Counted from the stretch's first letter, positions 402 through 23,117 are shown. The stretch: 64,000 bases of DNA from an uncultured bacterium (GCA_963721685.1 CAVRJJ010000002.1:8848-72847), one strand, 5' to 3'. Notes: a model not told the origin generated them from the sequence alone. Translations and numbers: made by a program.

Positions 402-1020
402 ATGATAATTTTGATAATTGCGGTCTGAGAGGGGCCGCCGCGCGAACGCGGCAGCCCCTTGACTGTCCGTCGCAGGCTGCTTGAGTCCTGGCTAAGACGA
501 CACGACACATGAAGATCGGCAGCGAATGCCAGAGTGAAGAGCGCTGGGCCTGCATGTGACCGCCACCACGGCCGAAACGCCGCACTTGCGAGCGCTGATT
601 CCTTCCGTTGTGCTTATTTAGCCCCCTTCTAGGCCTCGCCCGCCGAGTCGGAACTCCATGGTTGCATCCGCCGTAGAAGTCGATGCCCCGGGCCAGCTCC
701 CAGGCCGCCTCCATGGACTTCGAGCGTCTCTCGGTGTGGTTCCGGCACTCCGATGCGTGTACCCGAGATGAACTCGTCGGGTTAGCGACTGCCGGCCTCG
801 TGCTCGAGCATGAGCCTGACCAGGAAAAGACAGCCAGTAGGCGTCATCCTGATCGTTCAGTCGCTGAGATCCTCGAAGTCACGCGATTAGCACACAGGCA
901 TCCCAGCAGCGAGCTTCAACGCTGATCTCTGGAACCTCGATGACCCCTTCTTCTGTTGAGTTGCTCCCACGTTTCCTCCCTTGAGGCGTTGACGAAGTGA
1001 GTAAACTTTAGCGGATTGAT

Positions 1021-1067
1021 AATTGCCTGTCAAACGCAAAGAGACGCTCTTTTCAGGGCGTCTCTTT
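1021..1067 (-). terminator. Hairpin downstream of the 5S rRNA; candidate terminator of the 23S-5S transcription unit
   Basis: Perfect 10-bp inverted repeat aaagagacgc / gcgtctcttt (1038-1047 / 1058-1067) with a 10-nt loop. On the minus strand it is followed by GCGUUUG, a modest U tract. Confidence 0.35.
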
Positions 1068-1071
1068 GATA

Positions 1072-1190
1072 ATCCGGCACTGTGCTACTTTCCCGCTAAT
1101 GCAGTATCATCGCCGCAGGTGAGCTTAACTTCGGTGTTCGGGATGGGAACCGGTGTGACCTCACCGCTGAAAGCACCGGGTAATGGCTTA
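1072..1190 (-). rRNA. rrf: 5S ribosomal RNA
   Basis: The reverse complement reads …CCGGUGCUUUCAGCGGUGAGGUCACACCGGUUCCCAUCCCGAACACCGAAGUUAAGCUCACCUGCGGCGAUGAUACUGC…GGGAAAGUAGCACAG. This is the canonical 5S loop C/helix III (CCCAUCCCGAACACCGAAGUUAAGC) with the terminal helix closing. The ends are approximate. Confidence 0.8.
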
Positions 1191-1381
1191 AAAGCGTGAA
1201 TACTGTTTTCAACTGCCTACTATGCATTCTGATCTGTGATCAGACGATATGTGTAGGCAAGAAAACACGTATGAACGCATTTACTTCACTACCCGAAGCT
1301 TTTTAAAGCTTTCGGATAAATTTTTGGGTACATGGCTCTTTTATAAGCCACAAATCGCTAGTCAAATCACGTAGTAAAAAA

Positions 1382-4757
<3,376 letters not shown>

Positions 4758-5201
4758 TTTTACGTTGAATTGACTCCACGCAGCCCCATATGGGTGCGCT
4801 TCGTCGGTTTGACTAGCGATTTGTGGTTACAAAAGTAACTTCTAAATCGCTTGGTTTATTTGCATTACCCTCGATGATATCTTGAAGCAGATACCATCGA
4901 TATTCAATTTTCAAAAAACAACTCCGCCGTTTCTTACTTGGCGGAGCCCACATTCTTATAAACAATCAGATAGTGTAGGTTCTAGAACGAGCCTCCGTTA
5001 TAGCTGGTTGATTGTTTACACATATGTGAGCTCTCACTTAAAGTCTGTAGCTACTTTAGCAGGTTTAATAGGTGTGTGTAAAGAGGTTTTTTAACAGGAG
5101 CTTAAGCGGCTTCGCGGCACTTATTTAGTCGTCATTCTTGAATAGTGGATATACCAATACCGGAAGACCGCTATATAATGAAAGAAAACGGAGGATATAG
5201 T

Positions 5202-7200
<1,999 letters not shown>

Positions 7201-7790
7201 AGCTTGATCAGCCGCTCTGAGAATGTGTGTGGGGCGATTGGCTACCCCTAGATTCAGGGCCCACACAGCTCAGATGCGAGGTTCGACATCGGAGGATGTT
7301 GATGTCTCAGGCAGTTTCCTGCCTGGCGCGTGATTCAACCGCGACTTATGCAACGTGACAACCATCCATCTGGTACATTGGCGTCACGAAGACGAAGAAG
7401 CCGGCGACCCGACCAGGTTGATCTAGAGCCACCCCTACTTGACCGTTCGCGACCGGTCAGGTGCACATAGGGAGCGCTCTCCTGGCCGGACCGCCGTTTG
7501 CCATGACATGGTAGCCGCCGAGTAACCACGTCACAGCTCCGGATTAGCGCGAGAGCGAGGACACGCGCGTTCCGGAACCTCTATGGGGGCGTTCTCCCCT
7601 TGTGTGGCAGAGCACGGGGAGAGGCGTACCTCACCCATGAGAGGTACCTCTAGGGCATCTGGCGGTGGAGGGATGCCCGAGGTTCATTCATTATTTGCCG
7701 GTTTCAACGCTTTGTCAATCAAGTTTCGGTTGCTAGCCCGCTTCATTTCTGATTAAATTACTACGTTACCAATCTGATAGTTAACAACAA

Positions 7791-7867
7791 GGGCGATTAG
7801 CTCAGCTGGTTAGAGCGCGTCACTGATAATGACGAGGTCCCAGGTTCAAGTCCTGGATCGCCCACCA
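7791..7867 (+). tRNA. tRNA-Ile (anticodon GAT)
   Basis: GGGCGAT-TA-GCTC-AGCTGGTTA-GAGC-G-CGTCA-CTGATAA-TGACG-AGGTC-CCAGG-TTCAAGT-CCTGG-ATCGCCC-A-CCA. All four stems pair, the anticodon loop is CU-GAU-AA, and CCA is encoded. Confidence 0.93.
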
Positions 7868-7897
7868 TCTGCCAGGTTTGCCGCTGGCCTTTTTTAT

Positions 7898-7974
7898 GGG
7901 GATGTAGCTCAGCTGGTTAGAGCACCTGCTTTGCAAGCAGGGGGTCAGGAGTTCGAATCTCCTCATCTCCACCA
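7898..7974 (+). tRNA. tRNA-Ala (anticodon TGC)
   Basis: GGGGATG-TA-GCTC-AGCTGGTTA-GAGC-A-CCTGC-TTTGCAA-GCAGG-GGGTC-AGGAG-TTCGAAT-CTCCT-CATCTCC-A-CCA. The G3:U70 alanine identity pair is present and CCA is encoded. Confidence 0.93.
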
Positions 7975-8008
7975 GGAATTATACCCGTTTATTTGGTACA
8001 ATAAGCTT

Positions 8009-8281
8009 ATGAGTTTTGAGCATTTTGTAATTGGCAGTTTGCTTGTAGTATTTGGGTTCCTTGCCCTTAAATACAACTTTCAACTTGTTAATTTAACGGG
8101 TAATGTCGGCTTTGTTGAGCAGTGGCTTGGCGCTGGTTCAACCTATGGATTTTTCAAGCTACTCTCCATAATAATTTGTATCGTCGGTTTCTTATATATG
8201 TTTGGGCTATCCAATGCGGTATTTGGTTGGTTATTATCCCCCCTCGCCCAGTTCTTTCCCAAGGGGAACAACGGCCTGTAA
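8009..8281 (+). CDS. Small hydrophobic membrane protein (2-3 TM helices), hypothetical
   Basis: The ORF track's 7829..8281 frame begins inside tRNA-Ile, so the first plausible start is the ATG at 8009 (MSFEHFVIGSLLVVFGFLALK…). Its stop overlaps the next gene's ATG (TAATG). Confidence 0.4.
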   Translation: MSFEHFVIGSLLVVFGFLALKYNFQLVNLTGNVGFVEQWLGAGSTYGFFKLLSIIICIVGFLYMFGLSNAVFGWLLSPLAQFFPKGNNGL

Positions 8282-8871
8282 TGCAAATCGAGCAGCTCAT
8301 TGCCTACTGCCGGCTGTTAACCCAGTTTCAACAGGTAGAACGCCAGATGTTAGTACCGTCCGGCGAGCGCAACGAAAACGACGTGGAGCATAGTTACCTT
8401 CTGGCGATGACCGGCTGGTACATTGCCACCACCGCCAAACTGGACCTACGGCACGATCTCTTAATTAAATACGCCCTGGTGCACGATCTAGTAGAAGTGT
8501 ACGCTGGCGACACCTACTTTCATGACCCAATTAAAACCGCCAATAAGTCTACCCGCGAAGAAGCGGCCCTTGATGCTCTAAAGCAAAATTACCCTGACTT
8601 CAAAGAACTACACCGTCTCATTAGGCGCTACGAGCAACGCGCCGACGCCGAAAGCCGTTTCATTTACGCGCTGGACAAGCTCTTGCCGGTAATCACCATT
8701 TACCTGGATGGCGGCCGCTCCTGGCACCGTGATAAAATCAGCCTCGAGGTGTTACAGTCATATAAGGTAGAAAAGGTCGCGGCTTCTGCCATTATCGCCG
8801 ACTTATGGCAGCAGTTATCGGCAAAGCTGGTTGAGCAGCCCAAGCTATTCCCACCGGGAACAAAGGTTTAA
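8281..8871 (+). CDS. HD-domain metal-dependent phosphohydrolase (YfbR-like 5'-nucleotidase family)
   Basis: An H…HD motif is present (NDVEHSYLLAMTGW…LVHDLVEVYAGDTYFHD) together with a later conserved Asp (YALDKL). The start is the ATG at 8281, overlapping the upstream stop. Confidence 0.65.
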   Translation: MQIEQLIAYCRLLTQFQQVERQMLVPSGERNENDVEHSYLLAMTGWYIATTAKLDLRHDLLIKYALVHDLVEVYAGDTYFHDPIKTANKSTREEAALDALKQNYPDFKELHRLIRRYEQRADAESRFIYALDKLLPVITIYLDGGRSWHRDKISLEVLQSYKVEKVAASAIIADLWQQLSAKLVEQPKLFPPGTKV

Positions 8872-8877
8872 CCCGAA

Positions 8878-9420
8878 ATGAAGAAACCATCTAAAATCTA
8901 TGTAGTCGGTATTGCCGGAAGCGGCAAAACCACCCTGGCGCGCAAACTTACCAACGATCTTGGCTATCCTCACTTAGACTTGGATAAGGTCCGGTATCCA
9001 CGCTTTGAAACGACGCCTGATGACTCTAAGCTGAAGCCGGCGCTGGAAAACCTGTTGAAGCAACCAACCTGGATCGCCGAAGGCGCTTACACCACTTGGA
9101 GCGCCCCCTTATTGCAGGCAGCTGATGTCATCATCTGGCTGGATGGTAATCCTATCATTGCAGCCTACCGTATTATGAAGCGGCATATTATTAAGCTTTT
9201 GCACGGCCAAAAACACTTTTCCAACCGCAGCACGTTAAAGTTAGCCTGGGCTGCGCTCAATTCCCATCGCACCGGCCCGATTGTGCGAAAAATTGGCGCC
9301 CGACCCACCCATATCCCCTGGCAGCGTGAGATTGAAGAGGGCTTGGCACCTTATAAAGAAAAAGTTTTGCGAATGGACTCGTTAAAAGCGGCCGATAAGA
9401 TGGTTTTTGATAAAGGATAG
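8878..9420 (+). CDS. P-loop NTPase/small kinase (adenylate-kinase-like AAA fold)
   Basis: Walker A at the N-terminus (VVGIAGSGKTTLARKL) and a Walker B-like hhhhD (ADVIIWLDG). About 180 aa. Confidence 0.55.
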   Translation: MKKPSKIYVVGIAGSGKTTLARKLTNDLGYPHLDLDKVRYPRFETTPDDSKLKPALENLLKQPTWIAEGAYTTWSAPLLQAADVIIWLDGNPIIAAYRIMKRHIIKLLHGQKHFSNRSTLKLAWAALNSHRTGPIVRKIGARPTHIPWQREIEEGLAPYKEKVLRMDSLKAADKMVFDKG

Positions 9421-9424
9421 ACAG

Positions 9425-9901
9425 CTACCGCTGTCCCAGTGACAGATCGATGGTATAGACTGGGGATTTTTCAAGTAATCCTTTTTGTTCGGTGGGAAAG
9501 CTTGTGCCTGCGACCTCTCCAAACATGTAGCCGACGCTAAATTTATCGGAACTATACGTAAAATCGTAAAAAACATACTTACCTTCCGAGCTAGAACCAT
9601 TTTTTGAGTAATCCGTTTGCTCTTTATATCCCCGTTTTGAAAGACCGTTAATGATAAAATCATGAGCCTGCGCACCTGTCGTCTGACAGCTATATCTTAC
9701 ATACCAAAGCCTCTCAACCAACATTGCGCTTTGATAATGGCGGTTTTTTTCGATGCAATTTGGCGGGATTGGCAAATTAATTAATTCATTTGTTAAAGCT
9801 TTTTTGGTTTGTTTGTCTTGGTATATTCCATGCAAAATTATCACAACAAAGATAGTAATGAGAACAGCGAACGCTGATAAAATATCCTTAGCTACTTTCA
9901 T
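9425..9901 (-). CDS. Hypothetical membrane-anchored protein (N-terminal TM, extracytoplasmic domain)
   Basis: An N-terminal hydrophobic helix (ILSAFAVLITIFVVIILHGI) followed by a Tyr/Ser-rich domain. No recognisable motif. Confidence 0.45.
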   Translation of the reverse strand: MKVAKDILSAFAVLITIFVVIILHGIYQDKQTKKALTNELINLPIPPNCIEKNRHYQSAMLVERLWYVRYSCQTTGAQAHDFIINGLSKRGYKEQTDYSKNGSSSEGKYVFYDFTYSSDKFSVGYMFGEVAGTSFPTEQKGLLEKSPVYTIDLSLGQR

Positions 9902-9934
9902 AAACTGAAGTATACCACCTCAACCGTTTCCACT

Positions 9935-9962
9935 AAAAAACCGCCCATTTCAGGCGGCGTTT
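9935..9962 (-). terminator. Candidate rho-independent terminator downstream of the 16S rRNA
   Basis: The minus strand reads aaaacgCCGCCtgaaatgGGCGGtttttt: a 5-bp GC stem followed by six U residues, ~165 nt downstream of the 16S 3' end. This supports the 16S being a stand-alone transcription unit. Confidence 0.45.
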
Positions 9963-10124
9963 TAGTATTGAAATCTTGGTAGTGCAGTGTAGAGCCATAC
10001 ATCTTCGACCTAGAAGTACCGCAGCTGATTCACGCGAGCACTTGCAGCAAGCTACAAAGCTCTAACGTGACCAGTCTGGCCATAGGTCAACGCCTATGGA
10101 ACGTGTTACCACGTCGTTCTCCCT

Positions 10125-11730
<1,606 letters not shown>

Positions 11731-11940
11731 AAGATGGAATGGAAGTTCCATCTGTAAAGTTTGAACTGGTGATCAAGTAGGGATTTCTGCCCGAAGGCTT
11801 ACGTCCCAACGTTGACGTTCTTAGTCTTTATAGTGCAAAACCGAAGTTCCACACTTTCATTTTCTCAAAGTAAATGATGGTTACACTGCACTACCAAAAT
11901 TTCAACGTCCACTCTCGAAAATCTCCCAGAAAAAAATAGC

Positions 11941-11967: not shown

Positions 11968-12071
11968 TGACCGGGAAGTTTTTCAAGACTAATAGGAAGT
12001 ATACAGACTGAGAAATTGGGTGTCAACAACTGATGTGAAAAATGAAAAATACCGACACCTGGTAAAAGCTT

Positions 12072-12932
12072 TTACTTTCGCTTCTTAGCTCGGGCCGCTT
12101 TGGCGCGGCGTTTTTTGTTAGGGCCAGGAAGCCAACGCTTCTTCTGGTTTTCTAACTGATGTGCAGCCAAGGCGGGTGGCAGTGAGCTGTAGTAGGTACG
12201 CGCGAGCAATAAGGCGGCTACTACAAAAAGAGCTGCTACAGCTGCGGGCCACACCACCCATAAAGCGGCTGGGACCTTTTCATACTGTAAAAACGCCAGG
12301 AGAATGCATATAAAGCCAAAGCTCCCGAACGCGGTAGAAATACGGCGGGTGGCGCTTAAAGCAATCGCCACGTCCTTGTACGGACGAAGGAGCCACCAGC
12401 GCACCATTGCGCCCAGGAGGATGAGGAAAGCCCCGACGCCGGCTAGGCCATAAACATATGGCAAAGGAACGGGCCAGGTGGCCGCTTGGGTAAACGCGTC
12501 CATCTTATCGTAATTAAATAGGCACCCGAGTACCAGACCCATCAAAGCCCCGGTAAACACTTCAAGCGGCTTGTGACCCAGAATTTCTCGCAAGTGGGTT
12601 GGGGCGGGAAGCCGGTCGTCATGCTTCATACGGTCTATCAAGGCATTTATAGCCACCGCTTGCTCCCCCGCTGCCCGGCGCACCCCAAAGGCGTCATACA
12701 TTACGATGGCGGCGAGAATGACAGTGACCCCGAACACCGGTGAACCCACCCCTTCTACCAACGCGGCCGTAACCGCCAAAGATGTTACCACGGCAGCGTG
12801 AACGCTAGGCATACCCCCCGAGGCATACAGGTATTTGAAATCGACCTTACCCTTAAAGGCAGCTACCACGAATTTCGTAAACTGGGTGATGAGCCAAACC
12901 ACCAGCGGGACTACCACAAAACGGTTGAACAT
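12072..12932 (-). CDS. Divergent PAP2/acid-phosphatase-related membrane protein (DUF212, YuiD-like) fused to an extra C-terminal TM region with a Lys/Arg-rich tail
   Basis: The N-terminal ~150 aa resemble DUF212 (…KFVVAAFKGKVDFKYLYASGGMPSVHAAVVTSLAVT…IVMYDAFGVRRAAGEQA…). They are followed by ~130 aa of additional hydrophobic helices ending in KKRRAKAARAKKRK. Confidence 0.55.
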   Translation of the reverse strand: MFNRFVVVPLVVWLITQFTKFVVAAFKGKVDFKYLYASGGMPSVHAAVVTSLAVTAALVEGVGSPVFGVTVILAAIVMYDAFGVRRAAGEQAVAINALIDRMKHDDRLPAPTHLREILGHKPLEVFTGALMGLVLGCLFNYDKMDAFTQAATWPVPLPYVYGLAGVGAFLILLGAMVRWWLLRPYKDVAIALSATRRISTAFGSFGFICILLAFLQYEKVPAALWVVWPAAVAALFVVAALLLARTYYSSLPPALAAHQLENQKKRWLPGPNKKRRAKAARAKKRK

Positions 12933-13003
12933 ATACGCTATATCCTCTTTTGTGCCTTATTGTAGCCTAAACAGCGATATTAGGATAGGCATGCAGCGGC
13001 TTG

Positions 13004-15256
13004 TTAACGGTGTACCGTTTTTAGTTTGCGGTCGAGGCTTAAGGCTCCGCCGGCGAGCAGCATCATGAAGGCGGCCAAGACAATCAACAGGCCGGTTGTG
13101 CGGGTGCTGGCCGCGGCAGCCTCCTGGCTATGGATCGCTGCCTGGACCGCGTTAGGCAACGACTGGACATTCGCGCTGACATTAGCCGGCCCTAACGATG
13201 CAGTATCAATTGTCTGAGACGCGACTGGGCCGCTGCCCATAGAGGATGCAGCGTCATTGCCTAGGCTGGCTGCCAAACTGCCGCCGCCTACACCCAAAGG
13301 AGCCAGCTGTTGCGGTGAAACCAAGATGGTTCCGGCGGCGGTATCAACACCGGCACTCCCGTTCCATGTCCCAAAGACATTAATAAAGAGGATCCCGAAA
13401 ACCTTGCCAAAATGCAGCGTGCTGTTGAAAATGTTTGCAATACTGCTAGCAACCGTGGCGTTCCCGGATTTGGCGTCACCAGCCGTCGTGTTATTGGCAA
13501 CAGTCGCGTCTCCGCTGGTAGCGGTAATGTTAACGTTGTTCGTAATTGTGCCGTCAACATTATTGTCTATTTCAGCACTATTGCTATTACTTACCGATGC
13601 CTGGTTGTTCGAACCGGGACCCGTCGTATTATTCTGTACGACCGCGTTTGAAGTTAATAAGCCGCCTCCCGATTCACCGGACCCGCCAAGGTTCATGATG
13701 GTACCAAACCAGCGGCCCATATTATTAACGATAACCAAGACGGCGTTTTCTCCGAAGATATTGGTGTTAAAGAGGTTGAATAGGCTGGTGTGGGTTTTGG
13801 CTTCACCGGTCGTCGCGCTGCCCGCCTCGGTATTATTGGCTACGGTAGCGCTTCCAGTTGTAGCGGTGGCGTTAATGTTGTTGTTGAATGTGCCGTTCAC
13901 GTTGTTATCAATATCAAGGGTATTGGTATTCGTGTTGGTGGCCGTGTTGATGGAGCCCGGACCAGTGGTGCTATTCCCAACTAAGCCGCCGGGAGAACCC
14001 GGCTCACTGCTGGCTACAACCCCGTTTAAATTCAACCCCGGAAAGAGGATGTCGCCATCAAGGTTACCGAAGATATTAATAATCCCGAAGAAGGATTGTC
14101 CGGCGCCAATCGCGGTGTTTATGAGGTTAATGATATTAAGTTGGGCTAAAGCATCACCACTCATGGCGCTGCCTCCCCGGTTGTTGCCGTTAACAGTAGC
14201 ATCCCCACTGCTGGCATCGATTTGGACATCATTCACAATCGCACCGGTGGTTTGATTATTTACCTGGAGGTCGCGGCTGCAATCATAGTCGGCAATATTC
14301 GTAGAACCCGGACCAGTGTTGGTGTTGGTCGCGACTCCGCCGGAGCACTGGCCGATCTGCCCGCCCCCGCCGTTGGCCGGCTGAATGGTGATGGCAATAT
14401 CCCCGGTATGGTTTCCATAGATATTTTCAATAAAGTAGGACAGGCCGCCGCTCCCAAACGACCACATGGCGTTCAAAATATTTAACAGATTAGTAACAAT
14501 CGTGGCTAGGCCGGTGCGAGCATCCCCGGCATTGGTATTGTTGGCTACGCCGGCATCACCGCTTGAAGCATTTGAGCTAATATCGTTGTAAATTCCACTA
14601 TTTGTCAGGAGTGTTGCCAAGACGCTTTCGCTATCGGTAACGGTGCCTACATTCGTACTGCCAGGACCGGTATTACTGTTTTCTGGGTCTGTCACGCCCA
14701 GGATCCGGTTCATTAAGGCTGAGGGATCCTTGCTTCCGGCAGTCAAAGCATTTATCGAGTCGCTGGGGGTTACCCCGGGAATCACATGCCACCAGCCAAC
14801 AACCGGGTCGTAACGGTAAAATGGCGAAACCCAGTTAAGCGCATCCTTGCTCCACTTAAAGGTTGTTATGAGGGTAGGCTCCCATTTGTGGGCAGCGTCG
14901 TTAAAGGCATAATCGGGGGCTTTACCGGTTGGTTGGCCGAGCGCAACCGGGTCGGTTGGACCGGTTACCGGCGCGGGATTAGCAGGTTCGGGAGCGGTAG
15001 GCGGGGTCGGGGCAACCGGTGCCGGTGCAGGGGGAGGGGTGGGAACAGATACCACTCCGGGCTCCGCAGGGGTTTCGGTTGCGGCTGGCGGCTCTTCTTC
15101 CGGAGCCGGACTAACCGTTTGTTCAGTTTGGGTTGGAGTCGCCGAATCATCCTCCGCTGCCTGGGCCGGAACGTAGGGCCCCGCCAAAGCCATGGTTGCT
15201 ACTAATAAAATGGCTAGGAAGCGCTGGATCCGAGATTGGATAGTTGTTAGTTTCAT
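13004..15256 (-). CDS. Secreted 750-aa repeat protein: signal peptide, Pro-rich linker, four ~110-aa 'TGPGS-N … SGDATVANNT.AG.A.SG' repeats, then a C-terminal hydrophobic helix with basic tail
   Basis: - Signal peptide: MKLTT…LLVATMALAGPYVPAQA.
- Pro linker: PAPEEEPPAATETPAEPGVVSVPTPPPAPAPVAPTPPTAPEP.
- Repeats start at NTGPGSTNVG, NTGPGSTNIA, TTGPGSINTA and TTGPGSNNQA. Each is followed by an N/T-rich block, a SGDATV.NNT motif and an FG-rich hydrophobic segment.
- The protein ends …TRTTGLLIVLAAFMMLLAGGALSLDRKLKTVHR. Confidence 0.6.
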   Translation of the reverse strand: MKLTTIQSRIQRFLAILLVATMALAGPYVPAQAAEDDSATPTQTEQTVSPAPEEEPPAATETPAEPGVVSVPTPPPAPAPVAPTPPTAPEPANPAPVTGPTDPVALGQPTGKAPDYAFNDAAHKWEPTLITTFKWSKDALNWVSPFYRYDPVVGWWHVIPGVTPSDSINALTAGSKDPSALMNRILGVTDPENSNTGPGSTNVGTVTDSESVLATLLTNSGIYNDISSNASSGDAGVANNTNAGDARTGLATIVTNLLNILNAMWSFGSGGLSYFIENIYGNHTGDIAITIQPANGGGGQIGQCSGGVATNTNTGPGSTNIADYDCSRDLQVNNQTTGAIVNDVQIDASSGDATVNGNNRGGSAMSGDALAQLNIINLINTAIGAGQSFFGIINIFGNLDGDILFPGLNLNGVVASSEPGSPGGLVGNSTTGPGSINTATNTNTNTLDIDNNVNGTFNNNINATATTGSATVANNTEAGSATTGEAKTHTSLFNLFNTNIFGENAVLVIVNNMGRWFGTIMNLGGSGESGGGLLTSNAVVQNNTTGPGSNNQASVSNSNSAEIDNNVDGTITNNVNITATSGDATVANNTTAGDAKSGNATVASSIANIFNSTLHFGKVFGILFINVFGTWNGSAGVDTAAGTILVSPQQLAPLGVGGGSLAASLGNDAASSMGSGPVASQTIDTASLGPANVSANVQSLPNAVQAAIHSQEAAAASTRTTGLLIVLAAFMMLLAGGALSLDRKLKTVHR

Positions 15257-15418
15257 ATATTCCCCTGTACCTTAGTTAATTGGTTTGCTTTGTAAATTAT
15301 TAACTCATTACCACGATGAGTGCTGGGGAGGGGTTTCCCTCCCGAGGGCCGTGCATAAAAAGCGACGGCAGATTGGGCTGGCATAAACGCGCCAGAAACG
15401 TAGTACCACAGCGGCAAA

Positions 15419-15997
15419 CTAGTTAGTAATGTTAACCGTGCTGCTAGTGCTGTTGGTGTTAGAAACGGAACCGCTGGTGGCTGAACCGCCTGTGGTATTA
15501 CCGGCAACGGTAGCCGCGCCGCTAGCGCCAACTTGGACGTTAGCGTTAGTAACGGTTACAGCGTTCGTGTTAATTTTGGTCAACACGTTGAGGTTGGTGC
15601 TGGTAACAGCATTCAGTGAACCAGGACCGGTGAGGTTGATGCTAGCGGTGTTAGTGCCGCCGCTTCCACCCATTGGGCATCCGCAACCGGAGTTGTTGAC
15701 GCTAACGCTGGTTACAGCCGCGTTGGCGTTATGTACACCGCCGCTAGTGGCTGAACCACCAATGGTGTTGCCGGCAACCGTAGCAGGTCCGCTGGCACCT
15801 AATTGGAAGTTAACGTTACCGACACCAACAATGTTAGTGTTCAGCAAAGTTGCTAAGTTAGAGTTGGTAGAAGTAATGGTGTTAATCGAGCCTGGGCCGG
15901 TGGTACTGATGGTACCGCTATCGGCGGCGGCCACTCCTAAGCCAAGGCCTACTGTGGCCAGGGCGATAGAAGCGTAACGAAGTGTGCGATTACGCAT
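15419..15997 (-). CDS. Small secreted TGPGS-repeat protein (two repeats separated by an N-N-S-G-C-G-C-P motif); the C-terminus may be frameshifted
   Basis: Signal peptide, then ISTTGPGSINTITSTN…ASGPATVAGNTIGGSATSGGV…NNSGCGCPMGGSGG…LTGPGSLNAVTSTN…ASGAATVAGNTTGGSATSG. It is a paralogue of 16524..17192 and of the repeats in 13004..15256. Confidence 0.55.
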   Translation of the reverse strand: MRNRTLRYASIALATVGLGLGVAAADSGTISTTGPGSINTITSTNSNLATLLNTNIVGVGNVNFQLGASGPATVAGNTIGGSATSGGVHNANAAVTSVSVNNSGCGCPMGGSGGTNTASINLTGPGSLNAVTSTNLNVLTKINTNAVTVTNANVQVGASGAATVAGNTTGGSATSGSVSNTNSTSSTVNITN

Positions 15998-16034
15998 AAT
16001 GGTAGATTTCCTTTCTTAAAAGAAACTTGTTAAT

Positions 16035-16520
16035 TTATTGGCTGTGAATTTCAACCTGCGCGCCGTTTCCCGATACTTGAATGCTCGAGAAGCTGCTGCC
16101 GCCGGATGAATTGCTTGAACTGAAACTTTGCGAGCTATGGCTGAAATTACTCCCGCCATTTGAATGTGACTGAACCGAAATGTTGAGGTTGCCCGACGGG
16201 GTAGATGCCGAAACATTCCCACTTCCGGAGGTTGTCACGCTCGCCGAATTACCATGCACATGTACTGAGGCGGTTCCACCAGGAACCGGAACGGTAGTAG
16301 TGCCGTTGGTAGTTGGTACTTCTTGGCCATTCACCTTAATGTCGAGCTGGGCATTTTCCTCAGCCGACAAGCTTGGCGTAATTTCCGCTGAAGTACTGGT
16401 CTTGGCGTGATAATCGGCCGTTTTAGCCGCGGGTTGGTGCACAAGGGTGAAGACTGCCCCAACCACACTAACTGAAACTAAGCCTGCGATCACTGATTTT
16501 CTTGGTACAAAACTACTCAT
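16035..16520 (-). CDS. Membrane-anchored Ser/Thr/Asn/Gly-rich hypothetical protein
   Basis: N-terminal TM (IAGLVSVSVVGAVFTLV) followed by a low-complexity S/T/N/G-rich region (…SGSGNVSASTPSGNLNISVQSHSNGGSNFSHSSQSFSSSNSSGGSSF…). Confidence 0.45.
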   Translation of the reverse strand: MSSFVPRKSVIAGLVSVSVVGAVFTLVHQPAAKTADYHAKTSTSAEITPSLSAEENAQLDIKVNGQEVPTTNGTTTVPVPGGTASVHVHGNSASVTTSGSGNVSASTPSGNLNISVQSHSNGGSNFSHSSQSFSSSNSSGGSSFSSIQVSGNGAQVEIHSQ

Positions 16521-16523
16521 ATC

Positions 16524-17192
16524 TCACCCCTGGGCTTTAGCCCGTTTGGCCGCAAATGCGGCGCTTCCGCCAGCGCCAATTAAACTTAACGCTGCTGCTA
16601 GTGCAAGCAGTGCCGCGGAAATACCTTTAGCTTGGTCTATGGCTGAGCTAACAGGACTCGAAGTTGCGGGCTGATAGAGATTCCGCAAACCTGCGACATC
16701 GCAAACAACCGAACAGCCAACTGATGGCAGGACGCCACCTGAGCCTGCTCCCGCGCCACCAACTCCTAACGGAGCTACAGCCAAACCGCCGCCGACTCCA
16801 CCGGAACCAGCGCCAGAGCCACTCCCGTTGCCACCGCTGGGTCCCGTACCTGAGCCTGAGCCGCCACAGTTAAGGCAACCTGGGTTGTTGATAGAAACTG
16901 TGGTTGCCGTACTGTTCGTATTGGCAACATTTCCACTGGTTGCTGAACCACCCACGGTATTACCCGCTACTGTAGCTGGACCACTCGTACCTACTTGCGT
17001 ATTACTGTTGGTAACCGTAACGGCATTAACATTCGATTCAAAAACCACATTGGTTTCAGTCGACGTAATGGTGTTAACAGAACCCGGACCGGTAGTTGAA
17101 ATTGAGCCGTCATCGGCCAATGCCGCGCCAGCGCCAGCCAGCGTCAAGAGACTAGACATTGCAATAGTTCGAACTACTACTTTTGTCTTCAT
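16524..17192 (-). CDS. Secreted TGPGS-repeat protein with an N-N-P-G-C-L-N-C motif, a Gly-rich spacer and a C-terminal hydrophobic helix plus KRAK tail
   Basis: MKTKVVVRTIAMSSLLTLAGAGAALA signal peptide, then ISTTGPGSVNTITSTETN…TSGPATVAGNTVGGSATSGNV…NNPGCLNCGGSGSG…. It ends …GISAALLALAAALSLIGAGGSAAFAAKRAKAQG. Confidence 0.55.
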   Translation of the reverse strand: MKTKVVVRTIAMSSLLTLAGAGAALADDGSISTTGPGSVNTITSTETNVVFESNVNAVTVTNSNTQVGTSGPATVAGNTVGGSATSGNVANTNSTATTVSINNPGCLNCGGSGSGTGPSGGNGSGSGAGSGGVGGGLAVAPLGVGGAGAGSGGVLPSVGCSVVCDVAGLRNLYQPATSSPVSSAIDQAKGISAALLALAAALSLIGAGGSAAFAAKRAKAQG

Positions 17193-17270
17193 ATTATTTT
17201 CCTCCTTTCTTTAGGCGTTATTAGATAGTTCTGTTTTTTGGTTTTCGCCTCCACACTAAAATGAGCTCTA

Positions 17271-18128
17271 TCAGGTGACAAGCACGCTGGTACAACTCAT
17301 TTTGGGTGGAGTGACAAAAAATAGGATGGCAGCACCTGCGTCACTACGTGCTGCATCGGTATATCCCGAGCGACGCAAGCGTGCCAAGTAAAAATTAAGC
17401 AGAAGCAAAGAAGCCGCGACCAAAAGGATTACTAGGATTACCAGCTGTATTTGGGCCACTGCTAACGAAGTAGTAAATATCGCGGCGACGTCGGCTAACA
17501 GCTGAGGTGCTGGGATTAAGCTTGAGGTTAAAAGCACCCGTAAATTGCTAAGTAGTGCCGCTGGATCTTGCGGACCGTTTGGCATGTCAGGTGAAGCCGC
17601 GGTAGCGACAGCAAGACCCATGGGAACACTCGATTGTAATGCCGCCGGACCGCGATTGAGCGCCTTTAAAGCAGACCACGCGGTCATGATGCGCTGTTGG
17701 GTCTGAGAACCTTTTTCAGACGCGCTGGCTACAGGCGAGGCCACTTGTCCCGGTTGGGCGGCCGACGCCTCACTGCCAGTGGGTTGGGATACCCCACTTT
17801 TAGCCAGTAGGAAATCCGACGTACCACCGCCACTTAAAGCATCTGATGCCCCGACTAGCGATTGGCTAGCAGCAGGTGAACCAGTACTAGCACCACTACC
17901 CGAATCACTTGCCCCTCCAATTGTTTGGCTTTGGGAAGAGTTGGAGGAAACATCAATATTGCCATTTCCGGATGCATTAATTTCAAGGGTATTATTGCTA
18001 TTTTGTTCAGCACTGAGGCCTGGACTTTGGGCGCCAGTCGTGGCCTCATCGGCCGCTAAGGCCGCGCCACTGCCCAATGCCCCAGCAAGAAATATAACTC
18101 CGAGTTTTAGCAGCAAGCGTTGCAGCAT
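17271..18128 (-). CDS. Secreted/membrane Ser/Gly/Ala-rich hypothetical protein with C-terminal TM segments
   Basis: Signal peptide MLQRLLLKLGVIFLAGALGSGAALA and a low-complexity S/G/A/Q region. The C-terminus carries a long hydrophobic stretch (LAVAQIQLVILVILLVAASLLLLNFYLARLRR). Confidence 0.45.
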   Translation of the reverse strand: MLQRLLLKLGVIFLAGALGSGAALAADEATTGAQSPGLSAEQNSNNTLEINASGNGNIDVSSNSSQSQTIGGASDSGSGASTGSPAASQSLVGASDALSGGGTSDFLLAKSGVSQPTGSEASAAQPGQVASPVASASEKGSQTQQRIMTAWSALKALNRGPAALQSSVPMGLAVATAASPDMPNGPQDPAALLSNLRVLLTSSLIPAPQLLADVAAIFTTSLAVAQIQLVILVILLVAASLLLLNFYLARLRRSGYTDAARSDAGAAILFFVTPPKMSCTSVLVT

Positions 18129-18320
18129 ACGTTCTGGACTCCACCTGGGCTGTTAGGCCCTCTACATCAACTTACTTATTCGTTACTCAAGTAGCATAGG
18201 CCTTAATAGCTGTAAGCAATACCGGTAAAATAACAAAAGGATTTAACAGAAATTTAATATTTTTGTATAAATGCACAATTGCTTAAGTTACTTTAGCATA
18301 AGCATTTAAGTCTTCGCCAA

Positions 18321-18358
18321 GGCAAAAACAACCTCGCCTAGTGGAGCGAGGTTGTTTG
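18321..18358 (-). terminator. Rho-independent terminator of gyrA
   Basis: Perfect 12-bp stem aaacaacctcgc / gcgaggttgttt (18326-18337 / 18347-18358) with a 9-nt loop. On the minus strand the stem is followed by UUUUUGCC. It lies 27 nt after the gyrA stop. Confidence 0.6.
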
Positions 18359-18384
18359 GCGCATGATAAAAAAATGAAAAAAGC

Positions 18385-21012
18385 TTATGCTGGTGGAGGT
18401 GCGTCCGATAGCTCAAGCTGGGGTTCTGACCCGCCTTCTCCAATTGCTTGCTCAAGCTTCGACTCGCCAATCAACGCGATGGAAGCTACCTTATCACCTT
18501 CCTTCAGGCGCATAATACGGACCCCTTGGGTGGCGCGGCCAATGAGAGAGACGGTTTTAACGGGAAGCCGGATAATCTGCCCACTGGAAGAAATAATAAC
18601 CAAGTCGTCATTACCGTTCTCCAGAGCACGCACATCAAGAGCTTTGCCGGTTTTAACGGTCACAACTCCAGCCTTTATGCCAACGCCACCGCGGGCGTGG
18701 GTTGAGAACTGGTCCACCGACGTGCGCTTGCCATAACCATTCTCCATAATTACCAGTAGTTTTGTTCCGGGTTCGACCACATCAACGCCCACTACCTCAT
18801 CACCCGAGCGCAACCGAATGCCGCGTACTCCCCTGGTTGCCCTCCCCATTGGCCGGGCATCCGACTCTTTAAAGCGAATGGCTTGGGCGAGCGCTGTGGA
18901 CATAATAATTTCATCATTTCCCGACGTTTGCTTAACCCAGCGCAATTCGTCGCCAGTATCAAGCTTAATGGCAATTAGACCATTGGCTCGGACGTTGGCA
19001 TAATCTGCAAGCGCGGTTTTCTTAACGGTGCCTTTTCGGGTTGCCATAAAAAGGTACTTACCGGCGGTGGCGGCATTAAAGGTATTAATGGAAGTAATCA
19101 CTTCATCTGGACCCAACTGAAGCAAGTTAACGATAGCCTGCCCCTTGGCAGTCCGCGAGGCAGCGGGAATCTCATAGACTTTTTGGCGAAACACCCGGCC
19201 CATGTTGGTAAAGAATAGGATGAAATCGTGGTTATGAGTTAGGACCAGGTGCTCAACCACGTCTTCTTCCTTGGTAGTCATGCCCATAATGCCTTTACCC
19301 CCGCGTCCCTGGGACTTATAGGTATTAGCGGGAATCCGCTTAATATAGTTGCCCTGGGTAAGGGTGATAATGACTTGCTCATTAGGCACCAGCTCTTCTT
19401 CACTGAACTTACCCAGCTCGGTCGCCACAATCTGGGTGCGGCGGAGATCGCCGTGCTTTTCCTTTAACTCGGTCAGCTCTTCCTTAATAATCCGTAGGAT
19501 TTCTTTCTCATCCCCCAGAATTTTCTCAAGCGCGGCTATAAGCTTCTTGAGTTCGGCCAGCTCATCTTCAATCTCTTGGCGCTCAAGCCCGGTTAAACGG
19601 CGCAGCTGCATTGCCAGGATGGCTTTAGCCTGGATAACCGTCAATTTAAACTGCTTAATCAAGTTGGCTTCAGCGATTTCACTGGTACGGCTGGCGCGAA
19701 TGGTTTTTATAACTTCATCAATATGGTCGAGCGCTATCTTCAAGCCTTCCAAAATATGTGCTCGGTCTTTGGCTTTACCAAGCTCAAATTCGGTTCGGCG
19801 CCGGACTACGATCTGGCGGTGCGTAATGAACTCTTTGAGCATCATTTCCAGGGTCATGACCCGCGGTTGGCGGCCCTGGTCGGTTAAGGCCAACATGTTT
19901 ACATGGAAGGCGCCCTGCATCGGTGTTAAGCGGTAAAGCTGGTTAAGGATTTTCTTGGGATAACTGTCGCGCTTGAGCTCAACCACAATCCGGATGCCGT
20001 TACGGTTACTTTCGTCGCGGAGGTCGCTAATGCCGGTAATACGTTTATCCTTGGCCAGTTCGGCAATCTTATCAACAAGGGTGGCTTTATTGACTTGGTA
20101 CGGAATTTGGGTAACCACGATCTGTTGATTACCTTTTTTATCCTCTTCAATCTCAGCCACGGCCCGGACCACAATTGAGCCTTTGCCGGTACCATAGGCG
20201 GCTTTAATTGATTCTGTACCGAACATGGTTCCCCCAGTGGGAAAATCCGGACCTTTAACGTGCGCCATTAATGCTTCAAGCGGAGCATCGGGGTTGTCTA
20301 TTATATGAATAATGCCGTCTACCAGTTCTCCCAGGTTATGAGGCGGAATATTGGTGGCCATTCCGACAGCAATGCCCATCTGTCCGTTTAGCAGCAAGTT
20401 GGGAATTTTAGCCGGCAGAACCGAAGGCTCTTTTAAGAAGCCGTCGAAGTTAGGTCGGAAATCTACGGTGTTTTTCTCGATATCAAATAACATTTCGCTG
20501 GCTATGCGAGTCATCCTGGCCTCGGTATAACGCATGGCGGCGGGCGGATCGCCGTCAATCGAGCCAAAGTTACCCTGCCCGTCAACCAACGGATAGCGCA
20601 TTGAGAACTCTTGAGCCATCCGCACCATGGCGTCATAAATAGCGGAGTCGCCATGGGGATGGTAGCCGCCCATAACCTCACCAATAACCGCGGCGCTTTT
20701 ACGGTATTTGGCGTTATGGCGGAGCCCCATGGTATTCATAACGTAGAGTATCCTGCGGTGGACCGGCTTTAAGCCGTCACGGACGTCGGGAAGCGCGCGG
20801 GCCACAATAACCGACATAGCATATTTGAGATAACTATCCTCCATTTCAAACTCAAGGCTTTGGTTCTCTATCTGTCCAGCGCCAATATGACGGGCTTTGG
20901 CGATCGGCATCAGCTCACCATCAAGCGGGCCAATAGTAGACTCCGACGGGTCGTCGGCAGGTTGCTCGGGCAGCTCTGGTGTTTCAGGAGTTTCCGGTTC
21001 TTCAGGATTCAT
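18385..21012 (-). CDS. gyrA: DNA gyrase subunit A
   Basis: 875 aa. The active-site Tyr region ([10 protein letters not shown]) and the QRDR-like region are present, with C-terminal GyrA-box beta-pinwheel repeats. It sits immediately downstream of gyrB on the same strand. Confidence 0.95.
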
Positions 21013-21032
21013 CTTAGCCTTGTCCCATCATC

Positions 21033-23117
21033 TTAAAAATCCAAATCATCATCGGAAACAACCGTAGCGTGGGTTTGGATAAAGTTTTTACGAAGCAGCA
21101 CTTCTTCGCCCATCAGCTTGTTGAAAATAGCATCGGCCTTTTCGGCGTCATCTATGCTTACCTGGAGCATAATACGATGCTCGGGGTTCATGGTGGTATC
21201 CCACAACTGGTCGGCGTTCATTTCGCCCAACCCTTTGTAGCGCTGGATGTTGGCCCCAGCCATTTTCAACCGACTGCGTTCTTCGTCGCTAATTGCCAGC
21301 TCTTCATCATCCAGGTCCGGCGTAGACGCTGAATCATTTGTTTGCTCAGAATCATCCCCCTGGTCGGCAGCGGCGGCCGCTTCTTCAGCCGCATCTGCCT
21401 TGGCTTTGGCCTTGTTGGCAGCCTTTTCTTCGATCAACTTATCAATAATGGCATCACGCTCCTCTTCAGTATAGGCGTAGGTCTTTTTACGTCCGGCCTG
21501 CACCAGGTAAAGGGGCGGTCGGGCGATATAAAGATGTCCCCCGCTAATAATTTCGGGCACATGGCGATAGAAAAAGGTAAGCAGTAAAGTACGGATATGG
21601 GCACCATCAACATCGGCATCGGTCATGATAATAATGTGGCCATAGCGTAATTTAGCAATCTCAAACTGGTCACCAATACCGGTGCCCATGGCAACAATCA
21701 GGTTTTTGATTTCATTATTACCCAACATCCTATCGAGACGGGCGCGTTCAACGTTGAGAATTTTACCACGCAGCGGCAAAATTGCCTGGAATTCACTATC
21801 GCGGCCGGCTTTAGCCGACCCGCCAGCGCTGTCGCCCTCAACAATATACAATTCACTACGATTAACATCTTTAGTACGGCAATCTGAAAGCTTGCTGGCC
21901 AAGGTAAACCCGTCAAGGGCTCCCTTGCGGATAACCGTATCGCGGGCGGCGCGGGCGGCCAGCCGGGCGCGGGCGCTTAAGGTGGCTTTTCCAATGATTT
22001 TGCGGGCCTCTTGGGGGTTTTCATCAAGATAATAGCTGAACCATTCATTCACCACCTGCTCCACCACACTACGGACTTCCGGGCTGCCCAGTTTGGCTTT
22101 GGTTTGGCCTTCAAACTGGGGATCGGGCAGCTTTACCGATATGACAGCGGTAACTCCTTCACGTACATCTTCGCCGGTTAGACTTTCCTCTTTTTCTTTA
22201 AGTAAGCCGTTTTTACGGGCATAATCATTAATGACGCGGGTAAGCGCGGACCTAAAGCCCGTTAAATGAGTCCCGCCCTCGGGGTTATGGATGTTATTGG
22301 CAAACGTACGTACATTCTCACTAAAGCTTTCGGTATACTGCAAGGCCATTTCCACCACCACATCCTTAACCTGCTTTTCCACGTAAAAGGGTGGTTGGTG
22401 AAGGATACTTTTATCCCGGTTAAGGTGCTCAACATAGCTACGAATTCCGCCTTCAAAATAGTAGCCGTAGCTTTCGCTGCTTGGCTCGTTTGAAGCTTTA
22501 ACGTGGATTCCCTTGGTAAGATAGGCCTGGTGGCGCAAATAATCGAGCACCGTTTGGTAATTAAACTGGATAGATTCAAAAATGGTGGCATCCGGCCAAA
22601 AACTAATAGTTGTGCCGGTCCGGTCGGTGGGACCCACCACCTTTGGCTCACCTTTGGGCTTTCCCGTGCCGTACTCTTGGATGTAGTGCTTGCCCTCGAG
22701 ATAGACGTCAACAATCACCTTAGTAGATAACGCGTTGACCACGCTGATACCTACCCCGTGCAGACCGCCGGAAACTTTATAGCCCGAGCCTTCACCGCCA
22801 AATTTTCCACCGGCGTGCAAGACCGTCATGACAGTCTCGAGTGTGCTTTTCCCGGTAGTCTTGTGCTTTTCAATGGGGATACCGCGGCCGTAGTCGTTAA
22901 CCTTCACACCCCCGTCAGCCAGCATCGTGACTTCAATAGTATTACCATGACCGGCCATAGCTTCATCGATAGAGTTATTGATTACTTCCCATATAAGATG
23001 GTGAAGGCCCTCAATACCGGTTCCACCGATATACATGCCGGGACGCTTGCGTACCGGATCAAGACCTTCAAGCACCTGGATTTGGTCGGCGCCGTATTTT
23101 TTCTGATCAACTGCCAT
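21033..23117 (-). CDS. gyrB: DNA gyrase subunit B
   Basis: 694 aa. The GHKL ATPase N-terminus (…GLHHLIWEVINNSIDEAMAG…GGLHGVGISVVNALS), the Toprim EGDSAGGS block and the PLRGKILNVE motif are present. Confidence 0.95.
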   Translation of the reverse strand: MAVDQKKYGADQIQVLEGLDPVRKRPGMYIGGTGIEGLHHLIWEVINNSIDEAMAGHGNTIEVTMLADGGVKVNDYGRGIPIEKHKTTGKSTLETVMTVLHAGGKFGGEGSGYKVSGGLHGVGISVVNALSTKVIVDVYLEGKHYIQEYGTGKPKGEPKVVGPTDRTGTTISFWPDATIFESIQFNYQTVLDYLRHQAYLTKGIHVKASNEPSSESYGYYFEGGIRSYVEHLNRDKSILHQPPFYVEKQVKDVVVEMALQYTESFSENVRTFANNIHNPEGGTHLTGFRSALTRVINDYARKNGLLKEKEESLTGEDVREGVTAVISVKLPDPQFEGQTKAKLGSPEVRSVVEQVVNEWFSYYLDENPQEARKIIGKATLSARARLAARAARDTVIRKGALDGFTLASKLSDCRTKDVNRSELYIVEGDSAGGSAKAGRDSEFQAILPLRGKILNVERARLDRMLGNNEIKNLIVAMGTGIGDQFEIAKLRYGHIIIMTDADVDGAHIRTLLLTFFYRHVPEIISGGHLYIARPPLYLVQAGRKKTYAYTEEERDAIIDKLIEEKAANKAKAKADAAEEAAAAADQGDDSEQTNDSASTPDLDDEELAISDEERSRLKMAGANIQRYKGLGEMNADQLWDTTMNPEHRIMLQVSIDDAEKADAIFNKLMGEEVLLRKNFIQTHATVVSDDDLDF

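Follow-up and report, generated by a model that had tools for sequence, protein, structure and literature searches.

An undescribed repeat family and gene module of Saccharimonadia, a candidate co-assembling structure of the cell envelope

A 64,000-nucleotide stretch of DNA from an uncultured bacterium (GCA_963721685.1, CAVRJJ010000002.1:8848-72847; this whole stretch is referred to here as the window) was analyzed in this study with a focus on five adjacent genes at positions 13,004 to 18,128, which encode exported proteins, three of them sharing a repeat unit. The five minus-strand open reading frames (ORFs) reported in a first-pass annotation of the window were all found as given, and each is named here with the length of its product in amino acids (aa). 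Close protein homologues of the window carry the label Candidatus Saccharimonadia, and we assign its source to a genome of Saccharimonadia (TM7, Patescibacteria, candidate phyla radiation). The genes that make up the locus are as follows.

18385-21012, minus strand: gyrA, the gene on one side of the cluster
17271-18128, minus strand: ORF of the 285-aa protein E285
16524-17192, minus strand: ORF of the 222-aa protein D222
16035-16520, minus strand: ORF of the 161-aa protein C161
15419-15997, minus strand: ORF of the 192-aa protein B192
13004-15256, minus strand: ORF of the 750-aa protein A750
12072-12932, minus strand: DUF212 (divergent PAP2) membrane protein (Pfam PF02681, E = 1.8e-40), kept 3' of A750 in gyrA-linked loci

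The five cluster ORFs lie between gyrA and the DUF212/PAP2-like gene, with 3 nucleotides (nt) separating D222 from C161, 37 nt separating C161 from B192 and 162 nt separating B192 from A750. From 12072 to 23117 the window has the same gyrB-gyrA-PAP2-16S backbone as the cultured Saccharibacterium Southlakia epibionticum, plus the five genes between gyrA and the PAP2-like gene. In S. epibionticum, gyrB, gyrA, the divergent PAP2 gene and the 16S ribosomal RNA (rRNA) gene are consecutive (SEML1_0145-0148) with no cluster between them (gene table, PMC10633639 supplement), which indicates that the cluster is an insertion or deletion within a conserved backbone. Four of the five cluster products are recorded as called genes in a collection of 15 billion proteins, all from the same contig. 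The exact B192 sequence is absent from that collection, so the source annotation probably missed this gene or called it differently. Two long opposite-strand ORFs overlap the cluster, at 13257-14255 and at 15429-15977, the second of which (182 aa) shadows B192.

The motif TGPGS occurs at residues 196, 314, 431 and 545 of A750 (spacing 114-118), at residues 33 and 123 of B192 and at residue 34 of D222, and every copy is followed by SG.A.V..N. These seven units can be aligned without gaps across 74 residues, 14 columns of which are invariant. A hidden Markov model (HMM) of the unit, built from homologues, recovers all seven copies, with E-values between 3e-8 and 2e-20, and no other sequence of the window, which places the repeat far beyond chance. 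The first-pass annotation had described the repeat as common to the five-protein cluster, with two to four copies in three of its members. This holds for A750 with four copies and B192 with two; D222 also carries the repeat but in a single copy, and neither the TGPGS pattern nor the unit HMM detects it in C161 and E285. According to the same HMM, there are four units in 79 of 84 A750-family proteins, two in 79 of 85 B192-family proteins and one in all 44 D222-family proteins. The A750 units are only 36-40% identical to those of B192 and D222. Paired cysteines, which had been taken as one motif of the two small paralogues, are indeed present, but as CxC in B192 and as Cx2C in D222, and they are unconserved in the family.

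None of the five proteins had a credible match in Pfam or NCBIfam, and a Pfam scan of the 47 sequences in the B192-family alignment returned scattered single chance matches only. Sequence searches of the PDB with A750 and with a B192-family profile were likewise empty, consistent with the earlier statement that the family could not be recognized. Foldseek comparisons of the A750 model with the PDB and BFVD, and of a low-confidence B192 model with the PDB, yielded no match at E <= 0.001, with root-mean-square deviations (rmsd) of 12-50 Å. Matches to solenoid proteins (FapC, CsgA, LpxD and an ice-binding protein) had E > 1, rmsd of 28-41 Å and no superposition, and on these values the solenoid, amyloid and ice-binding matches were rejected as evidence; the match to CsgA (8c50), for example, had E = 4.5 and an rmsd of 37 Å.

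Individual candidate families fared no better. Curli subunits were rejected, as Curlin_rpt (PF07012) matched neither the window proteins (E <= 1) nor the 47 B192-family sequences, and the chaplin profile PF03777 was unmatched in the same two sets. Collagen-like proteins were also set aside, the translations containing no Gly-X-Y runs and no Pfam Collagen match; hits to collagen-like or chaplin-type domains, named at the outset as grounds for giving up a new family, were thus lacking in the Pfam scans. For autotransporters and trimeric autotransporter adhesins, which end in an outer-membrane beta-barrel or a YadA-type anchor and belong to diderms, there was no Pfam or NCBIfam match, and the C-terminus consists of a single transmembrane (TM) helix and a basic tail. 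One JGI record names a homologue "trimeric autotransporter adhesin", a name without support in the present data. The G5 domain of SasG/Aap (PF07501) gave no Pfam match and no PDB Foldseek match at E < 1. S-layer and SLH domains were unmatched in the window proteins, and one of the 47 aligned sequences had a chance-level match to PF07752 (E = 0.048). Literature searches on Saccharibacteria surface layers, sortases and LPXTG proteins turned up no account of the family. Judged from sequence, the repeat is an undescribed protein-domain family and defines a gene module of Saccharimonadia.

The A750 family comprises at least 1148 homologous clusters at 90% identity (E <= 1e-10), whose listed source names read "hypothetical protein" in all but three cases and give a credible function in none. 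In a scan of one genome per species, A750 relatives were present in no fewer than 256 species genomes, and the 80 of these that are listed are essentially all labelled Saccharimonadia or Saccharibacteria, which bears out the suggestion that the family is lineage-specific. When an HMM of the seven window units was used to search 1.84 billion representatives exhaustively, only 1534 proteins were retrieved at E <= 0.001, and the best 150 of these have 3-6 repeats in about 270-800 aa, with no giant or variable arrays. A few cluster-bearing loci carry odd labels (Rhodoglobus sp., Nanoarchaeia, Parcubacteria and Nomurabacteria; loci L051, L007, L011, L028 and L073). GyrA of L007, L011 and L028, labelled Parcubacteria or Nanoarchaeia, is 73-75% identical to that of the window; this is inside the 62-86% range of the other loci and therefore indicates the same lineage, so that the labels look like binning or naming errors. 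The Rhodoglobus-labelled locus may be a Saccharimonadia contig binned into an actinobacterial genome. On present sampling the family appears to be essentially confined to one lineage, the Saccharimonadia.

Gene order was compared across 83 related loci, and C161 was searched for in 84 sequences (these loci and the window). Two types of locus were recognized. The first, to which the window belongs, has the order gyrA - E285-like - D222-like - (C161-like) - B192-like - A750-like - DUF212. The second has the order (C161-like) - B192-like - A750-like, followed on the opposite strand by genes for a GT2 glycosyltransferase, a sortase and a D222-like protein. B192 is immediately upstream of A750 in all loci that are long enough, and 76 of these intergenic regions were measured; where the adjacency is missing, A750 is at a contig end. 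Jackhmmer identified one C161 homologue each in 55 of the 84 sequences, directly upstream of B192 in 51, sortase-linked loci included. The corresponding search with E285 was discarded because similarity in signal peptides and low-complexity sequence led it into the repeat families, and E285 was therefore traced by its position and C-terminal motif. An ORF of 263-374 aa with the E285 layout fills the gap between gyrA and D222 in nearly all type-1 loci, and a strict pattern for the motif (LRRSG[FY]xxAARSD) matches 22 loci. Since homologues of each of the five families recur elsewhere with the gene order retained, the ORFs are not low-complexity artefacts, a concern raised by the first-pass annotation. 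In the sortase-linked relatives of A750 (consensus of alignment A4), TGPxS is present at units 1 and 3 only, and units 2 and 4 keep the remaining repeat.

The predicted architecture of the five proteins is given below; pLDDT is the predicted local distance difference test score of AlphaFold2.

A750, 15158-15256, minus strand: signal peptide
A750, 14930-15157, minus strand: Pro-rich disordered linker
A750, 14777-14929, minus strand: Trp/Tyr-rich small beta domain (pLDDT 88-93 in the AlphaFold2 model)
A750, 14357-14683, 14003-14329, 13667-13978 and 13307-13636, minus strand: four long repeat units
A750, 13115-13297, minus strand: second disordered linker
A750, about 13028-13114, minus strand: C-terminal TM helix, then a basic tail
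B192, 15923-15997, minus strand: signal peptide
B192, 15692-15913 and 15422-15643, minus strand: two repeat units, with no anchor
C161, residues 8-32, minus strand: N-terminal membrane anchor, then a Ser-rich exported region, no repeat
D222, 17115-17192, minus strand: signal peptide
D222, 16884-17105, minus strand: single repeat unit
D222, 16734-16883, minus strand: Gly-rich linker
D222, 16716-16730, minus strand: LPSVG (residues 155-159), 68 residues before the C-terminus
D222, 16683-16700, minus strand: DVAGLR
D222, about 16548-16634, minus strand: TM helix, then a basic tail
E285: signal peptide, Ala/Ser-rich exported region, TM helix at about residues 213-252 and LRRSGYxxAARSD at residues 251-263

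All five proteins start with a hydrophobic signal or anchor segment, as had been proposed for each of them, and in A750, D222 and E285 a C-terminal hydrophobic segment is followed by basic residues. The extreme Asn/Thr/Gly/Ser composition once ascribed to the whole cluster does not extend to E285, which is Ala/Ser/Leu-rich and not Asn/Thr-rich; its LRRSGYxxAARSD segment is predicted to be a conserved cytoplasmic motif. The AlphaFold2 model of A750 reaches a block-mean pLDDT of up to 93-97 in the unit cores (69.5 overall). The Trp/Tyr-rich domain of this protein could be involved in glycan or cell-wall binding. In sortase-linked relatives it has a repeated Y.Y(N/D)..TG.W motif, with no Pfam match. 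B192 modelled alone gave low confidence (pLDDT 56.5). Its reading frame is intact, because 46 homologues of 183-210 aa (mostly 190-200) align along the full length and end alike, which argues against the 3' frameshift that had been suspected.

The C-termini had earlier been read as a hydrophobic helix with a basic tail and without LPXTG. Helix and tail were found, but D222 contains LPSVG, and LPx[T/V]G is present 59-70 residues from the end in all 35 gyrA-linked single-repeat orthologues, so this reading needs to be corrected. Between LPx[T/V]G and the TM helix, 27 of the 35 have a DVSALR-like segment. In the sortase-linked single-repeat proteins, LPxTG (LPNTA in one of them) is located 38-42 residues from the C-terminus in 12 of 12 and is followed in each by a hydrophobic stretch and a basic tail, which on inspection identifies this region as a canonical cell-wall sorting signal; the one such orthologue compared with TIGR01167 scores 14.5 bits, below the cut-off of 15.9. 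Sortase domains adjoin the D222 orthologue in type-2 loci and score far below all class cut-offs, class C being the weakest (17.8 bits versus 160). Sortase-assembled Gram-positive pilins, which have Ig-like or CnaB domains and a class C sortase at the locus, were rejected on this class C score together with the lack of any pilin-domain HMM match. The presence of sortases in relatives agrees with the monoderm context assumed at first, and Patescibacteria are called monoderm (PMC11665869). LPSVG of D222 is a putative site of sortase cleavage. In the closest relatives (loci L001, L006, L008 and L043) a Cys-x3-Cys pair follows LPxxG, e.g., LPSVGCSVVCDV, and more distant relatives have Ala or Pro in its place.

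Mean-field direct-coupling analysis of 1166 core units (effective number 1016) revealed an antiparallel ladder (b-c) between unit positions 29-46 and 55-72, which includes 12 of the 40 highest-ranked pairs (p about 1e-7, top z-score 12), and a weaker ladder (a-b) between positions 6-26 and 30-50, with 6 of these 40 (p about 0.02). The two ladders point to a three-stranded antiparallel meander with strands of about 20 residues, in which the TGP motif contacts the tip of the second hairpin according to covariation. Long strands in the AlphaFold2 models of A750 and B192 agree with this meander. The unit is therefore predicted, with support from covariation, to be a three-stranded antiparallel sheet of roughly 70 residues. 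The resemblance to a beta-solenoid proposed in the first-pass annotation is not supported, given this topology and the non-significant Foldseek values above.

In the 1042 long units of the A750 type, covariation pairs an extra hairpin (d-e, positions 78-97) with the third strand. The hairpin also touches hydrophobic positions of the second and third strands, which implies that one face of the sheet is covered in these units. The hairpin is missing from the B192- and D222-type units, and the face that it covers in A750 is the most conserved part of the small-protein units, with 3.2 and 2.7 bits (VVNNQA / ANNTTVV) versus 0.7 and 1.6 bits on the other face. Such a conserved, uncovered and semi-polar face implies a partner, which for the single-unit D222 would have to be provided in trans.

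The small units are also more similar within genomes than between them. Within-genome identity among the two B192 units (B1, B2) and the D222 unit (D1) is 54-56%, and orthologous units across genomes average 42-46%; the within-genome value is the higher one in 96% of genome pairs for B1/B2, 88% for B1/D1 and 82% for B2/D1. The nearest neighbour of the B1 or D1 unit is a paralogue from the same genome in 23 of 39 genomes. A750 units are mostly position-orthologous, and for the one cross-class pair tested, the second unit of B192 and the fourth of A750, within-genome identity exceeds that of orthologues in 20% of pairs. The small units evolve in concert within genomes, which fits units that must keep matching each other.

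Signals that may delimit transcription were identified at the following positions.

18324-18357, minus strand: terminator after gyrA, a canonical hairpin and T-run read from the sequence
15315-15343, minus strand: terminator-like element in the B192-A750 gap, a GC-rich hairpin and then a tail with GCA[AC]T[TC]ATC, no T-run
1018-1070, minus strand: hairpin and GCA[AC]T[TC]ATC, no T-run, after the 5S rRNA gene
413-460, minus strand: hairpin and GCA[AC]T[TC]ATC, no T-run, a third site

The hairpin and T-run after gyrA separate the cluster as a transcription unit of its own. Between B192 and A750, the hairpin GGGAGGG-AAAC-CCCTCCC (15326-15343) is followed two bases on by GCACTCATC (15315-15323). 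A hairpin of -15 kcal/mol or stronger within a 40-nt window is present in 89% of 71 orthologous B192-A750 gaps, compared with 1% of shuffles and 19-27% of neighbouring gaps, and GCA[AC]T[TC]AT is found downstream of the hairpin in 30 of 76 loci. The same arrangement of a hairpin and GCAATTATC recurs 3' of the 5S rRNA gene and at one further site in the window. The hairpin with GCAAUUAUC after B192 may thus be a candidate non-canonical, lineage-typical terminator, in which case B192 probably ends a transcription unit E285-D222-C161-B192. B192 may consequently be made in excess of A750. A sigma-70 scan found no convincing promoter in the intergenic regions of the cluster, with total counts equal to those of shuffles. 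A near-consensus sigma-70 promoter (TTGACA-17-TATACT, 11 of 12 matches) is present at 11998-12026 on the minus strand, upstream of the 16S rRNA gene, suggesting that the standard promoter consensus is valid in the source organism.

Taken as a whole, these data make it a serious, if tentative, possibility that the cluster is a lineage-specific envelope module of Saccharimonadia, whose products assemble together at the cell surface, some parts being anchored in the wall, some in the membrane and others secreted. A750 would be held in the membrane by its C-terminal helix, and its four units would be self-contained because one face of every sheet is shielded by the extra hydrophobic hairpin. D222 would present one uncovered unit on a flexible linker and be fixed to the wall or the membrane through its LPxTG-type signal. 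B192, secreted and with two uncovered units, would probably be the most abundant part, and the membrane proteins C161 and E285 would likely serve as assembly or anchoring accessories. The uncovered conserved faces of the B192 and D222 units would pack against each other, and secreted B192 would build onto the anchored proteins to form a surface coat or short fibres. A more specific version, which we regard as speculative and somewhat doubtful, is a hitherto unseen polymer of the three repeat proteins restricted to Saccharimonadia, a coat or fibre in which long, core-less beta-sheet "planks" stack via the conserved polar face, with a membrane anchor and a sortase-type wall anchor as seeds and the two accessory membrane proteins as helpers. 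If true, this polymer would influence the way in which these ultrasmall bacteria encounter their hosts or environment.

Several points weigh against a co-assembling structure. The NCBIfam LPXTG model TIGR01167 does not match D222 of the window, and no sortase was found either in the 64 kb of the window or in the retrieved flanks, up to 9 kb, of gyrA-linked loci. The signal of D222 is non-canonical, with LPSVG placed 68 residues from the C-terminus and a DVSALR-type segment before the TM helix. The module is not universal at the gyrA-PAP2 site, as S. epibionticum lacks the cluster there. Concerted evolution of the small units could have arisen simply by gene conversion among adjacent paralogues, or could reflect a shared amino-acid bias. 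Physical co-assembly, with its biological role, and the relative abundance of B192 are inferred here. The evidence nonetheless favours a co-assembling envelope structure over free-standing adhesins, while falling short of proof.

As independent surface adhesins, the proteins would each bind a host-cell or substrate ligand alone, with the repeat serving as a stalk or binding module. All five are exported or anchored, cultivated Saccharibacteria are epibionts relying on surface adhesins (PMC10633639, PMC11665869), the Trp/Tyr-rich N-terminal beta domain of A750 could bind glycans, and the surface proteins diverge faster than GyrA (33-56% versus 62-86% identity). Such families, however, usually vary in repeat number and gene content, and the present module keeps copy number, protein length and gene order constant over hundreds of species. 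An anchorless, secreted B192 with two units would also make a poor free-standing adhesin, and the small units keep a face that has no cover in cis and co-vary within genomes. This explanation therefore appears unlikely.

It is distinctly less likely that the module acts as a tether or spacer between membrane and wall, in which A750 would bind D222 via the shared unit and set the geometry of the envelope, with B192 as a soluble cap or competitor and no coat being formed. The complementary anchors of the two proteins, a TM helix in one and an LPxTG-type signal in the other, both carried on long flexible linkers, would suit this role, as would the fixed, stoichiometric copy numbers and the housekeeping neighbours gyrA, PAP2-like membrane protein and 16S rRNA. 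But the A750 units are already covered by their own hairpin, have diverged from the small units (36-40% identity) and are not homogenized with them (20%, in the one pair tested), and the terminator-like element that sets B192 apart would be left unexplained.

A curli- or chaplin-type functional amyloid, with cross-beta fibres of the small proteins nucleated by an anchored paralogue, would account for sequences rich in Asn, Thr, Gly, Ser, Ala and Val with few charges and for the Asn/Gln/Thr rows of the semi-polar conserved face. The split into anchored and secreted forms mirrors that of long and short chaplins in Streptomyces, and FapC and CsgA are the top-ranked, though non-significant, Foldseek hits. 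We nevertheless consider an amyloid improbable: the Curlin_rpt and chaplin HMMs are unmatched in the window proteins and in the 47-sequence B192 alignment, the Foldseek hits have the E-values above 1 and rmsd of 28-41 Å noted above, and covariation describes an intramolecular antiparallel meander instead of a strand-arc-strand solenoid. That the ORFs are spurious low-complexity translations or decayed pseudogenes, as the long opposite-strand ORFs and the absence of the exact B192 sequence from the protein collection might suggest, has a negligible probability and appears already refuted by the conservation data, namely hundreds of homologues with the same length, invariant Gly/Asn/Trp columns and gene order, strong column covariation, and the recording of four of the five products as called genes.

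Several known surface systems resemble the proposed co-assembling module in part. Chaplins of Streptomyces comprise long, sortase-anchored forms (ChpA-C) and short, secreted forms (ChpD-H) built on a hydrophobic domain of about 40 residues. Like them, the Saccharimonadia proteins are paralogues based on one small domain, with secreted forms and putatively wall-anchored forms bearing a sortase-type signal, encoded together in a monoderm. The Saccharimonadia unit differs in being polar and about 70 residues long, and the chaplin domain HMM does not match it; in addition, it is the secreted form that has two units and the anchored form that has one, opposite to the situation in chaplins, and there is an extra four-unit membrane protein. 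The G5-E regions of staphylococcal SasG and Aap form elongated three-stranded antiparallel sheets with little or no hydrophobic core and belong to LPXTG-anchored, self-associating proteins, with variable arrays in SasG. Long three-stranded sheets, deduced here from covariation, and LPXTG-type surface anchoring, putative in the present case, are common to both systems, whereas SasG carries variable tandem arrays on one protein and the present module has fixed copies distributed over three. The resemblance to chaplins and to SasG G5-E is functional or topological only and not homology.

Curli (CsgA/CsgB) and the Fap system of Pseudomonas likewise have repeats rich in Asn, Gln, Gly, Ser and Ala, and a major subunit with an anchored nucleator paralogue. 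They need an outer-membrane secretion machinery of diderms, however, and the curlin repeat forms solenoid rungs of 19-23 residues (strand-loop-strand), unlike the meander predicted here. LPXTG sortase substrates have the motif, a stretch of hydrophobic residues and a basic tail no more than about 35-40 residues from the C-terminus. The single-repeat proteins of type-2 loci share this arrangement, with LPxTG, hydrophobic stretch, basic tail and an adjoining sortase; D222 of the window differs in having LPSVG, an insert of about 27 residues of the DVSALR type before the TM helix, and no sortase nearby.

Saccharimonadia and other Patescibacteria account for much of the bacterial diversity that is still uncultured, and most of their cell surface has yet to be charted. 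The module described here is a concrete candidate for a major envelope structure with a fixed architecture across at least 256 species genomes, and it contributes a variant LPxTG-type signal and a putative new domain family whose topology has covariation support. It offers testable targets for cryo-electron tomography and proteomics, and also for the genetic tools that have become available in Saccharibacteria. Should the cluster turn out to be absent from the oral, host-associated lineage, it may mark environmental versus host-associated Saccharimonadia.

Other features of the window may be of use for comparison. Three very long ORFs are located on the minus strand: one of 1396 aa at 56905-61095, without a Pfam match; one of 2441 aa at 43194-50519, with LVIVD and beta-propeller repeats; and one of 1584 aa at 25189-29943, which weakly matches families of type IV secretion coupling proteins and HerA-like ATPases. 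As in many Saccharimonadia, the rRNA genes (minus strand, within 1072-11731) are unlinked, with the 16S gene at 10127-11731 and the 23S gene at 1374-4761, 5.3 kb apart, and an IMP dehydrogenase gene (5582-7183) and two opposite-strand transfer RNA genes (7791-7971) between them. The 23S match spans 3388 nt versus 2925 in the model, indicating that about 460 nt are inserted.

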